A stretch of 64,000 nt of DNA from Leptolyngbyaceae cyanobacterium (GCA_965263355.1 CBDHHL010000032.1:896001-960000); one strand, 5' to 3'; counted from the stretch's first letter, positions 41,994 through 45,888 are shown. Translations and numbers: made by a program. Notes: generated by a model not told the origin, from the letters alone.

Positions 41994-42131
41994 GGGCATC
42001 CAACTCGGTCGCCTCACCCTCTAACAGTAAGCATGTCTAACATTATGAGACTTGAAGAGGTCATGTTCATAGTCTCCAGGGGCTCATATCACCACTTAAA
42101 ATGGAAGCTAGTTCTGTAGAAACGTTCCATT

Positions 42132-42779
42132 ATGGTTAGTGCAGCTCCTTTAGTTAAGCAGCCTGTACCAAAGCCAGTGGGTGAACAGCGGGTGGTATTT
42201 AACTCGCTTACCTGGCAAGGTTTTTTAACGATGCGGCAATCGCTGAGTCCAGATCGCAATACGCGATTAACTTACTTAGAGGGGACATTAGAAATTACGA
42301 TGCCGCTTGAGATCCATGAGTTTTCAGCCTGGTTAATTGGGCGTTTCATCTACATTTTAGTATCGGAACTGGGTATGGAACTCAAGACTATGGGCTCAAC
42401 GACACTGGATCGGCAAACGTTAGATCGATCGGGTGAACCCGATGCGGCCTACTATATTCAGAATCAACCATTAGTAGCGGGGCGGGATGTAGATCTAGAA
42501 AAGGACCCACCGCCGGATTTGATTGTGGAAGTAGATATCACCCATACGGATATTGATAAGTTGCAACTGTATGCAGCGATGGGTGTACCCGAATTTTGGC
42601 GGTATAACGGAGAAGTTTGGCGGATTTACCAGTTACAGAATTCTGATTACGAGGAAGTGGATCAAAGTCCCACATTTCCCCAGGTCCCTAAGACCAAACT
42701 ATATGGGTTTTTATCGACAGCTAGAGAAAATGAGATGAGGGCCGATCGAGAATTACGAGCGTGGGTGAGAACTCTGTAG
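42132..42779 (+). CDS. Uma2 family (DUF820) PD-(D/E)xK endonuclease-like protein
   Basis: GTLEITMP, EPDAAYYIQN, PPDLIVEVDIT, GVPEFWRYNG. Confidence 0.92.
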   Translation: MVSAAPLVKQPVPKPVGEQRVVFNSLTWQGFLTMRQSLSPDRNTRLTYLEGTLEITMPLEIHEFSAWLIGRFIYILVSELGMELKTMGSTTLDRQTLDRSGEPDAAYYIQNQPLVAGRDVDLEKDPPPDLIVEVDITHTDIDKLQLYAAMGVPEFWRYNGEVWRIYQLQNSDYEEVDQSPTFPQVPKTKLYGFLSTARENEMRADRELRAWVRTL

Positions 42780-42871
42780 TTTGTCCACAGACTACTTTCT
42801 AGCTGACTGGAAAACTGTGTACTACCGAATGCGCAGTTAGTTACACTATGGCTGTCGTCACCTGTAAAACT

Positions 42872-43030
42872 ATGACAGCTCCACAACCAGGCGTTTCCAT
42901 TTCCAGTAGCACCGTCTCTGGTGAGAACATTAACCAGGGCGATAATAATCAGGTAGTACAGGGCGATGGCAACCAGGCCGTCGTCGGCAATGTCGGCACC
43001 TGGTTAGGCATCGCCGCATTATTTGCCTAA
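42872..43030 (+). CDS. Micro-protein with an amyloid-like Q/N/G motif and a short hydrophobic tail (putative NLR partner, or an internally deleted effector)
   Basis: MTAPQPGVSISSSTVSGENINQGDNNQVVQGDGNQAVVGNVGTWLGIAALFA; aligns without gaps to the N-terminus of the downstream NACHT protein. Confidence 0.6.
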   Translation: MTAPQPGVSISSSTVSGENINQGDNNQVVQGDGNQAVVGNVGTWLGIAALFA

Positions 43031-43146
43031 AAAAAATCCTTATCCCGAACCCCGACCAATCCCCACGTAGGTTGGGTTGAACCTCCCATACCCTAATCCT
43101 CACATCCCCCCCTACATCCCGCGAAACCCAACAAATCCGATACCCC

Positions 43147-45239
43147 ATGCCCCATCCCCCCGAGCATGAATTTGAAATCGAAAATTCCTCTGTGCAAGAC
43201 ACCAACATTGCCCAAGGCGATCATGCTCACACCCTCCAGGGCAATCAAAACAAAGCCAATGTCGGCAACCATAATGTCCAGGTAGATGGCCAGGGGCACA
43301 CCGTCATCGTCCAAACAGCCCCCACCGAAAAACGCCCCCACTTGGAGCACATCCTGCTAGACGAAGTGGCCAACGAAGTCAGCTACCGACGGCAGCAGTC
43401 ATTACACAATCAGGTCTTTATCGAACTGGGTAAAACACAAGCCCCAGAGCAGATTCGTTGCCCATGGGCCATGGAAGTGAAAATAGGCAAACAAGCCCCG
43501 GAACCCATTCCCCATGGTCAGACCATCGCCGATGTATTTGAGCGGGATGACATTAAAGGAAAATTGCTCATCCTAGGTCAGCCAGGAGCAGGCAAAACCA
43601 CCACCCTGCTAGACCTGTCTAAAGCATTGTTAGAAAATGCCCAGCAAGACGCCACCAAACCTATTCCCGTTCTGTTTAACCTATCTAGCTGGCGGGATGA
43701 CAAACAAACCATTGCCCAATGGCTGGTAAACGAACTGCAAGAAAAATATCAGGTGCGCGAGGCCAAAGGGCAGGAACTACTAGAAGCTAAAAAGCTACTG
43801 CCCCTGCTAGACGGTTTAGATGAACTGGCAGCCCAGCGCCAGGAGGGTTGTGTAAAAGCTATTAACACCTGGCTGGGGTCAGACCTGGGTGTGGGCAAAG
43901 TAACTGTATGCAGCCGCATACATGAATATGAGACCTACAAAACGAAGCTAGCGCTCAATGGCGCAATTTGCCTACAGTCGCTAGAGAAAGCAGAAATAGA
44001 ACAATATTTGCAACGGACTGGCAAGACCAAACTCTGGCCCGTGATCAGTCAAGATAAAACTGTTTTGGACCTGGTGCAGGTGCCCCTATGGTTAAGCGTA
44101 TTGACCCTGGCGCAGGATGAACTAGATCTAGAAAAGTGGTCACGGTTAGAGACAGATAAAGAAAGGCTGACGCTGTTGCTAGATGCCTATGTGAGTTCGC
44201 GGCTGGCGGCACCGCTGAACGAGAAAAATTGTAAGTACTACAAACTGAGTAAAGTCCCTACAGCAAGGAAAACCCGTCATTGGCTGGTGTGGCTAGCCCA
44301 GAATATGGGTCAGGATGAGTTTTTAATTGAGCGTATGCAGCCTGAGTTGTTAAAGACCCGTGGTGAAAAGTGGCAGATGCGTCTGCTTGGATGGCTTATT
44401 TGGGTCTGATTTTGTCTGATTGGAGTTGTGAGTCTGATTGCGGAAGTGGCCTGGGTCTGGTTGATTTTCTGATTTGGGGTCTGAGTTTGGGTCTATTTTT
44501 AGGTCTGAATTGGGGTCTGATTTGGGGTCTGATTTGGGGTCTGATTAGGGGATTATTTGGGTCTGATTCAATTGATACTGTTGAGGTTTTGAAAATAAGT
44601 TTTTCGCGGCGCGAAAAATATTTTTCAACCAACTGATTGTGGGGTCTGATAGTGGGTCTGATTGGGGGGGGATTTTGGGTCTGGTTTTGGGGCTGCTTGA
44701 GGGTCTGATTGTGGGTCTGATTGGGGGTCTGATTTGGGGTCTGATTATTTTGGGGTCTGATTGTGGGTCTGATTGTGGGTCTGATTTTGGGTCTAGTCGA
44801 AGGCTTTAAAGCTGACATTCAAACTCAAGTACAGCCAAACCAGGGCATTCTCAACTCTGGTAGAAATACCCTATTTTTGTTGGTCATTTCTGTTCCCACT
44901 GCTCTTTTACTGTGGTTCGCTTTGCCCCCTATACTTGCCAGCACCAACCTATTAACCAGTGATGAAATTGCCACCACTACTGCATCAGGAATTGCCATTC
45001 TTTTTTGGAGCACATGGGCCTACGGCGGCGGCGACGCCTACCTCCGCCATTACGCCCTCCGCTTCGTCCTCGCCCGCTCCGGCAAAATCCCCTACCTCTA
45101 CGCCAACTTCCTCAACTATTGCACCGAGCGCCTACTGCTCCAGCGCGTCGGCGGTCGCTTTCGCTTTTTACACCGCACCCTGCAAGAACACTTTGCCACC
45201 ATGCCATTAGAAGATTATGGTCAGGGAATGAAACCTTAA
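43147..45239 (+). pseudogene. NACHT (STAND/NLR-like) NTPase with C-terminal GLIx-repeat membrane region, broken by several frameshifts and stops in the repeat tract
   Basis: Walker A GQPGAGKTT, Walker B LLDGLDE, PLWL; the ORF 43147..44409 continues in shifting frames through GLIxGLIx repeats into 44763..45239 (PNQGI, LRHYALRFVL, LLQRVGGRFRFLHRTLQEHFA). Confidence 0.85.
44400..44797 (+). repeat. Degenerate 12-bp tandem repeat GGTCTGATTNNN (Gly-Leu-Ile-X) in two blocks
   Basis: Many GGTCTGATT units at about 44400-44570 and 44640-44797 with a variable fourth codon and indels. Confidence 0.9.
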
Positions 45240-45289
45240 AACAACTCACATCCCTTGATGGGTAGGCATTTAGGCTCAATCGGTTGGAT

Positions 45290-45310
45290 GGTGGGCCGTG
45301 CCCACCCTAC
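45290..45310 (-). repeat. REP-like GTAGGGTGGGCACGGCCCACC element
   Basis: GGTGGGCCGTGCCCACCCTAC at the Uma2 stop; partial relatives near 47341 and 58043. Confidence 0.55.
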
Positions 45311-45888
45311 AGGATATTCTCTACGTTTAAAACAAAGCCGGGCAAAACATCTCCGCCATCAATCTGTTGCGGAACTTGCAATACTTCCACAACTTGCCCT
45401 GGACGATAAATCTCTACCGTTTTATTTTGCGGGTCAATCAACCATCCCAACCGCACATCGTTTTCCCGATACTCTTCCATTTTTGCCTGCAACGTCGTCA
45501 ACCGATCCGTTGCCGAACGCAGCTCAATCACAAAATCAGGCGCAATGGGCGGAAACTTTTCTCGCTCTGTTGCACTCAACGCCTCCCAACGACTGAGCTC
45601 AATCCACGATGCATCTGGAGAGCGCTCTGCACCATTCGGTAACTTAAAACAGGTGGACGAATCAAACGTATAGCCAAGTTTGGTTTGTCGATTCCATAGA
45701 TTCAGATCAGTCGTAATATCAGCATTACGACGACCACTTTCACCACCTGTGGGGGGCATAATAATCAACTCTCCCTGGGCGGAACGTTCAAATTTTACAT
45801 CTGGGTTGGCTCGACAAAGCTGATAAAACGCCTCGTCTGTCAGCTTGCCAATGGGATCAAGGGTAATAGTGAAAGCGGTCATAGACAA
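45307..45888 (-). CDS. Uma2 family endonuclease-like protein
   Basis: GELIIMPPTG, RSPDASW, PDFVIELRS, LGWLIDP, VLPGF. Confidence 0.92.
   Translation of the reverse strand: MSMTAFTITLDPIGKLTDEAFYQLCRANPDVKFERSAQGELIIMPPTGGESGRRNADITTDLNLWNRQTKLGYTFDSSTCFKLPNGAERSPDASWIELSRWEALSATEREKFPPIAPDFVIELRSATDRLTTLQAKMEEYRENDVRLGWLIDPQNKTVEIYRPGQVVEVLQVPQQIDGGDVLPGFVLNVENIL

Follow-up and report, generated by a model that had tools for sequence, protein, structure and literature searches.

In the Bell/NOD-like receptor (NLR) systems of multicellular-type bacteria, adjacent collinear genes share a short motif rich in Q, N, G, V, and I, which falls into several classes of bacterial amyloid signalling sequences (BASS1-10; 10.1101/2020.01.06.895854). 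The motif lies at the N-terminus of the NLR, which has a TPR or WD40 sensor, and at the C-terminus of Bell, a small helical partner of ~100 aa whose conserved hydrophobic helix, like that of HeLo, is N-terminal. TIR and CHAT are among the associated domains. In that study, the C-termini of Bell and other C-terminal motifs were screened against NLR N-termini. NLR-linked motifs are likewise placed at receptor N-termini and effector C-termini in PMC12261475 and PMC13506858. The screens are biased to this layout, and whether other layouts exist has been asked (PMC7889193). These and the later statements on the literature follow the accessible parts of the cited sources. Here, we describe a locus of the opposite layout in a 64,000-nt stretch of DNA from Leptolyngbyaceae cyanobacterium (GCA_965263355.1 CBDHHL010000032.1:896001-960000; the whole stretch is hereafter the window). 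At positions 42872-45239, a 52-aa open reading frame (ORF) precedes a NACHT gene, and both carry a Q/N/G motif. The ORF is almost certainly the broken remnant of a longer protein, a motif followed by a four-helix bundle, from a family that is paired with such receptors. In our reading, the locus is a two-gene module of immune type that is widespread in cyanobacteria and has been damaged here; the module would perform NLR amyloid signalling to a membrane-active bundle in mirror image; for this reading as a whole, we consider the case evenly balanced.

The locus and its relatives share several properties with the Bell/NLR systems: adjacent collinear genes in multicellular-type bacteria, a matching motif at the receptor N-terminus, several motif classes, a small helical partner domain of ~100 aa, and TIR and CHAT among the associated domains. 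They differ in that the motif is N-terminal to the bundle, the hydrophobic helix is C-terminal, and the receptor is a NACHT protein with a transmembrane region instead of a TPR/WD40 sensor. In 149 of the 150 family proteins listed, the bundle ends no more than 15 residues from the C-terminus; the first-pass annotation of the window had already proposed this reversal of the Bell-then-motif order, and the family anatomy bears it out. The locus would work like BASS/Bell but departs from it in three defining features (motif position, helix position, and sensor type), so we do not count it as a member. The motifs were compared with BASS through the published description, and the BASS1-11 sequence sets may overlap with ours. 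Bab/Agp of Escherichia coli (BASS11) provides a precedent, in which a small helical protein that targets the membrane receives an antiphage death signal through a ~20-aa amyloid motif (10.1101/2024.11.07.622273). Unlike the present family, Bab has its hydrophobic helix at the N-terminus of a Babybell domain and its motif at the C-terminus, and the receptor has a TPR-GreA/B-PIN architecture. The fungal NWD2/HET-S pair is similar in that a NACHT receptor with an N-terminal motif is encoded beside the effector, and in that HET-s is a disabled allele that keeps the motif (PMC7889193). It differs in its opposite polarity and WD40 sensor, and no significant sequence match to it was found (HeLo, E 0.14). 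The partner family was not found in the accessible parts of PMC9815663, PMC7159879, PMC8195603, PMC10907252, and PMC13581612. A literature search, mostly outside the reach of subscription journals, found no description of it, and a sequence look-up returned nothing.

The features of the two genes on which the comparison rests are as follows.

42872..43030, + strand: partner-gene remnant, 52 aa, in which the first 40 aa are fused in frame to the last 12 aa.
42893..42991, + strand: partner-side Q/N/G motif of the QGD class with three 8-residue pseudo-repeats, a candidate amyloid signalling sequence.
42983..42998, + strand: deletion junction (42991/42992), where two copies of GTCGGCA are retained at a spacing of 9 nt.
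42992..43027, + strand: C-terminal 12 residues of the last helix of the bundle, including the conserved W-L-G, kept in the remnant.
43147..45239, + strand: NACHT (STAND) gene with N-terminal motif, NACHT domain, Gly/Leu-rich multi-transmembrane region, and conserved C-terminal block; broken in the assembly.
43171..43269, + strand: receptor-side motif, NACHT residues 9-41, which matches the partner motif.

The two motifs (42893-42991 and 43171-43269) were aligned without gaps over 33 residues, 15 of which are identical. The best ungapped BLOSUM62 score was 75, compared with 22.8 ± 4.4 (maximum 51) in 2000 composition-preserving shuffles, none of which equalled it. The match reported by the first-pass annotation is thus confirmed, as is its 8-residue pseudo-repeat spacing (24 nt). 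The motif consists of 14% Q, 11% N, 15% G, 8% V, 7% I, 2% K, 2% P, and 2% L. This Q/N/G/V/I-rich and K/P/L-poor bias, for which no UniProt background was computed, fits the description of BASS (10.1101/2020.01.06.895854).

Longer homologues of the small ORF were found. The first genome scan reduced 57 pattern matches to two loci, both from named cyanobacterial records. In L001, a 138-aa partner is followed by a 669-aa NACHT protein. In L004, a 149-aa partner (450 nt) occupies the window's own genomic site, behind the same permease and a Uma2 gene. Among candidates of 75-242 aa, there were eight close relatives, all of 145-151 aa. The window ORF corresponds to the first 40 and the last 12 residues of the L004 partner, and the remnant lacks 291 nt (97 codons) in frame, which encode most of the four-helix bundle. 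The alternative of an internally deleted longer effector, raised by the first-pass annotation, is therefore correct; the "short hydrophobic helix" that it had described is what the deletion left of a ~100-aa helical domain, namely its final 12 residues. It had also placed a GTCGGCA direct repeat at the junction. Both copies are present (42983-42989 and 42992-42998). A simple repeat-mediated deletion would have left one copy; since two remain, the deletion was not a clean event of this kind, and that mechanism was rejected.

Four public short-read runs were compared with positions 42000-45400, and two of them (X1 and X2) hold most of this region. X1 and X2 come from one study that may include the source of the window; they therefore serve as a check of the assembly and not as independent occurrences. 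An X2 contig covers 42000-43516 without gaps and with one differing letter, and a 60-nt X1 contig bridges the deletion junction at a depth of 18; thus, the short ORF is real. One flanking X1 contig ends at 42991 and the next begins at 42992, and X2 has no branch. Judging from the contig ends, this branching in X1 may possibly reflect a minor undeleted allele. In X5, contigs diverge from the window at the same junction and carry sequence of the intact type.

That the 52-aa product is itself functional, either as the minimal membrane-active effector of the first-pass annotation or as a HET-s-like decoy that sequesters the receptor seed, is very unlikely. The in-frame deletion retains the motif and the W-L-G tail and is present in two samples, as this explanation would have it. 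However, a deletion of any kind is in frame one time in three, just 12 residues of the helix are left, and no homologue was found when proteins of 28-91 aa were sought, so that a minimal effector is not supported beside eight close relatives of 145-151 aa. Four further short relics of the 5' end of the partner gene (L144, L145, L146, and L163) are each cut at a different place. These isolated relics in four other genomes suggest that the cassette is often lost. L133 has no partner and keeps the NACHT gene, whereas the same site in L134 has both. Loss of the partner beside a kept NACHT, in the window and in L133 relative to L134, fits a costly output gene.

The chance that the small ORF arose by duplication of the 5' part of the NACHT gene, or that the match is fortuitous, is negligible. 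An 11-nt stretch is identical in both genes (42988-42998 and 43257-43267), and the same codon is used at 10 of the 15 identical residues. Nevertheless, the nucleotide identity over the motif is only 55/99, the ORF aligns at either end with a distinct protein family of 138-151 aa that has a domain of its own, and the pairing recurs with other motif classes. The intact orthologues L001 and L004 refute the duplication.

The partner consists of an N-terminal Q/N/G motif of 35-50 aa and a ~100-aa four-helix bundle that ends in an amphipathic W-L-G helix. A profile built from nine close relatives retrieved 301 clusters (50% identity) at E ≤ 0.001, of which 152 also reach 1e-10; counts on 150 proteins in this text refer to the 150 listed of these 301 clusters. 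In four genome samples searched at differing thresholds, matches were found in 24/301 (13 strong and 11 weak), 74/120, 30/201, and 8/89 genomes. The 11 weak matches, in genomes of 1.7-2.1 Mb, were set aside; the one examined (L023) was a different protein of 504 aa. Among viral contigs, none of 121 pattern matches was a relative. AlphaFold2 monomer models of two partners show residues 1 to 50-59 as unstructured, followed by four helices with a predicted local distance difference test (pLDDT) score of ~80. Apart from the start Met and one Pro, no residues are more conserved than W (96%) and G (93%) of the last helix (67 rows), and in 57 of 67 members the hydrophobicity peaks within the final 30 residues.

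Searches of Pfam and NCBIfam returned no significant model for the partner, and a Foldseek search with the bundle returned nothing at E ≤ 0.001. A PDB profile search gave six weak matches (best E 8e-4, to a small protein complex), which we took as uninformative. Two leads from the ESM Atlas, DUF4404 (0.91) and TCAD2 (0.88), which appeared beside unnamed cyanobacterial clusters, were not confirmed by Pfam scans. The PADLOC candidate model PDC-M14B matches 64 of 67 members over its C-terminal ~110 positions (best E 1e-11). Its matches begin at ~145, its N-terminal ~150 positions are unmatched, and the model also matches in 3 of 14 control genomes. The PDC-M14A model did not match the L001 NACHT. 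No paper on PDC-M14B was found, so that this candidate system is known here from its model alone. In a distant relative found with this model (L138:222-1584), a 315-aa unnamed protein ends in a glycine-rich motif, which recurs at the start of a 127-aa helical protein encoded by the next gene.

Of the 150 proteins listed, 63 have 125-170 aa and 65 are fusions of more than 250 aa. In the 64 fusions that were scanned, the additional domains were pentapeptide (30), CHAT (7, one also with caspase), TIR (3), AbiTii (2), COR (2), TRADD-N (1), DUF4062 (1), and PMT_2 (1); 17 had none. A Met directly precedes the motif in 51 of the 65 long relatives (P0014-P0161), compared with 31% of background windows. 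This suggests recent fusion or a second translation start, which would free the motif-bundle unit.

The pairing of the partner with a downstream gene was assessed at 105 loci, of which 91 had the module, 75 were distinct, 68 were full length, and 65 had room downstream. A co-directional ORF was located within 500 nt at 58 of the 65 loci, with a median intergenic gap of 30 nt. The co-occurrence of the motif in adjacent genes, on which the first-pass annotation had staked its reading, is conserved: under a fixed rule (first 65 residues, z ≥ 4), 45 of the 58 pairs have a cognate motif match. The 58 downstream proteins comprise 36 NACHT, three iSTAND, three FGE-sulfatase, two TPR, two PDZ, one nSTAND1, one sub-threshold STAND, one Rieske (without the motif), and nine unnamed proteins. 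One partner precedes two NACHT genes at L114, L115, and L136, and both NACHTs bear the motif at L114 and L115. At five loci (L007, L020, L066, L067, and L069), the place of the receptor is taken by a 275-311-aa protein with a motif-matched start and no Pfam match. At L119:854-3076 (L043 and L044), NACHTs carry the matching motif behind two N-terminal membrane helices and not at the terminus. At L011, L012, and L014, pentapeptide membrane proteins that end in the motif-bundle unit precede FGE-sulfatase (C-type-lectin-fold) proteins with the motif at their start; domains of this kind have been reported as targets of diversity-generating retroelements.

The motif occurs in several classes, which change in step in the two proteins; the class names (e.g., QGD and VQIGG) were coined in this analysis. 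The QGD profile matched 12 places in 7 of 120 genomes, namely nine starts of partners or NACHTs and three short relics. The profile of a second class matched 16 places in five chosen genomes, namely seven partner-sized frames, eight longer frames, and one relic. Both profiles were built partly from the genomes that were then searched. In 15 dereplicated clusters, the mean cognate score was 61 and the mean non-cognate score was 30; none of 100,000 permutations was as high. With bundle similarity controlled for, the two motifs had a partial Mantel correlation of 0.49, and none of 1000 permutations reached it. In genome G001, the QGD partner scores 87 against its own NACHT and 21-28 against three other downstream proteins.

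Co-inheritance explains part of this co-variation, because the motif classes cluster on both the bundle tree (45 rows) and the NACHT tree (24 rows). Two lines of evidence argue for co-variation beyond co-inheritance, as far as sequence comparison can tell. First, the QGD class ties the bundle to NACHT, iSTAND, and FGE-sulfatase proteins, which are three unrelated families. Second, the trees are discordant at L070 and L083: the bundles group with the QGD set (94/94) and the NACHTs with the VQIGG set (100/99), and the partner and the NACHT of each locus have their own matching motif. The two proteins are likely to be physically coupled through the motif.

The coupling may also be that of effector-associated domains (EADs), known from NTP-dependent conflict systems (PMC7159879; PMC8195603). 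On this explanation, the motif is a non-amyloid homotypic docking element with limited beta-strand or beta-roll contacts and without self-propagating fibrils. It follows the EAD rule that copies in adjacent genes are closest to each other. The partner pool also resembles that of EADs (iSTAND, nSTAND1, FGS, TRADD-N, caspase-like, and TIR), with iSTAND, nSTAND1, and FGS shared by the partners here, and weak matches to the beta-roll family PF21300, which also speak for the main reading, provide a structural hint. However, EADs are described as small folded domains, mostly alpha-helical. The motif here has 35-50 aa and low complexity, is unstructured as a monomer, has a BASS-like composition, and is tied to one constant C-terminal bundle. 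Moreover, no EAD model was among the Pfam matches of the 67 members scanned. We therefore regard EAD-like docking as improbable, and the coupling is probably amyloid, by analogy with the described systems.

The protein encoded downstream of the small ORF had been annotated as a NACHT protein. The domain was verified (PF05729, E 7e-9, above the cut-off), but the frame as assembled ends at 44409 (420 aa) and resumes as a 158-aa ORF at 44763. The parts of the gene are as follows.

43576..43824, + strand: intact segment of the NACHT domain that runs from Walker A (residues 144-151) to Walker B (residues 220-226).
44386..44762, + strand: GLIx repeat region of 12-nt units, with stops and frameshifts that have no short-read contig support.
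44763..45239, + strand: C-terminal 158 aa of the NACHT gene as a separate ORF, with hydrophobic segments and the conserved terminal block.

The GLIx region contains 15, 8, and 5 stops in the three frames. The breaks are probably assembly errors in a 12-nt tandem repeat, because X1 and X2 contigs depart from the window after 44385, upstream of the first stop, into in-frame repeats like those of the intact orthologue, the read depth is ~2 across 44394-44507, and X2 lacks 4 nt at 44745. Repeat units are irregularly spaced in the window, whereas 18 of 19 intervals are 12 nt in L001. A NACHT pseudogene was considered and rejected, since the short reads disagree with the window sequence. The gene is probably intact in the organism, though no contig bridges the whole repeat. 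In the window strain, the effector output is most likely switched off and the receptor is probably intact. The truncated 420-aa NACHT is already a protein-database entry (P0001).

The NACHTs examined have hydrophobic segments of the transmembrane type behind the NACHT domain, except for two frames that are truncated or N-masked. The L001 NACHT has five hydrophobic windows and PF05729 above the cut-off, and its Pfam scan showed no TPR or WD40 family. The conserved block after the transmembrane region is a putative NACHT winged helix. This architecture resembles the "TM regions" sensor class of bacterial NACHTs, which has multiple transmembrane segments and is common in cyanobacteria (10.1101/2022.07.19.500537). 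Unlike the present family, that class has no named amyloid motif (the word amyloid has no occurrence in the accessible part of the source) and no upstream partner there.

Two neighbouring genes provide the context of the locus.

42132..42779, + strand: Uma2 (PF05685) flanking gene.
45307..45888, - strand: Uma2 (PF05685) flanking gene; L001 has the same downstream neighbour.

Uma2 genes thus lie on both sides of the cassette. In L001, L004, and L134, cassettes of the same type follow differing upstream genes, as would be expected of a unit that is mobile or often replaced. Between the two genes, a palindromic element (43071-43132) has 8-nt arms 46 nt apart, and the intergenic region of L001 has it too. 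A promoter scan gave four sites (2.5 expected) and a terminator scan gave five (3.4 expected); both are uninformative.

Analogy with NWD2/HET-S and Agp/Bab suggests that the NACHT would oligomerise in response to a membrane or phage cue, and the transmembrane region of the NACHT is the likely sensor. The clustered NACHT motifs would nucleate a cross-beta fold, which would template the motif of the partner. Release of the terminal helix from the bundle into the membrane would then lead to cell death. This layout would mirror HeLo/Bell, in which the released helix is N-terminal and the motif is C-terminal. By the same analogy, the bundle may be a membrane-active executor, for which our confidence reaches even at most. 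A broader proposal, which we advance tentatively, is an undescribed mirror-image amyloid family. Its four-helix executor with a free C-terminal membrane helix would be triggered via an N-terminal prion-like tag. The tags, in at least five classes, would serve as separate channels that wire the executor and its TIR, CHAT, and AbiTii fusions to membrane-sensing NACHTs and to iSTAND, FGE-lectin, and TPR proteins. Such a family would be invisible to the published effector screens based on C-termini.

Several results weigh against this mechanism and against the pairing on which it builds. The beta-solenoid was not seen in either AlphaFold2 monomer model; both leave the motif without secondary structure, at a pLDDT below 50. 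The hydrophobicity of the terminal helix is only moderate, with a mean of 1.25 for the best 19-residue Kyte-Doolittle value and with ≥1.6 in only 6 of 67 members. The Pfam HeLo match of the partner was not significant, and VIA-align found only generic helical bundles (best Z 11.5), with ties that include bacteriocin-immunity-type proteins; the best 50 matches listed contained no HeLo, MLKL, or Bab, which excludes nothing. The loci examined were the best-scoring of each search and not a random sample. Seven of the 65 loci have no co-directional ORF, and 13 of the 58 pairs did not pass under the fixed rule; when these 13 were rescanned post hoc, three were recovered (two with the motif behind N-terminal membrane helices), six stayed weak, and four had no motif. 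The cognate ranks first in only ~9 of the 15 clusters, and the L007 motif fits another locus better than its own neighbour. The clustering of the motif classes on both trees counts on the same side.

The results on the bundle also suit an explanation that we regard as unlikely, though less so than EAD-like docking, namely that the motif couples the proteins and the bundle is a cap or adaptor, which maintains the solubility of the motif or restrains the receptor. In that case, the output would be the multi-transmembrane NACHT or, in fusions, the TIR, CHAT, or AbiTii domain upstream of the motif. The modest terminal hydrophobicity agrees with this explanation, as do the generic four-helix fold, for which the tied matches include bacteriocin-immunity-type proteins, and the number of fusions among the relatives listed, some of which place the bundle behind enzymatic effectors. 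The small gene is also upstream, in an antitoxin-like position; antitoxin genes often lie upstream. Conversely, the relatives of 125-170 aa are too short for another enzyme domain, and the strongest conservation, after the start Met and one Pro, falls on W and G of the last helix. Deletion or loss of the partner beside a kept NACHT should not be allowed for an obligatory inhibitor. This is a mild point, and it is tempered by G001, which has a second QGD partner elsewhere.

With the bundle as the putative effector, the window copy is a natural effector-deletion allele, which is less important than the family itself. The family provides natural sets of cognate and non-cognate tags that are usable for studies of seeding specificity, and a candidate output for the many cyanobacterial transmembrane NACHTs without a fused effector domain. 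It represents an unnamed candidate death effector of opposite polarity and breaks, at scale, the rule that the motif is N-terminal in the receptor and C-terminal in the effector.

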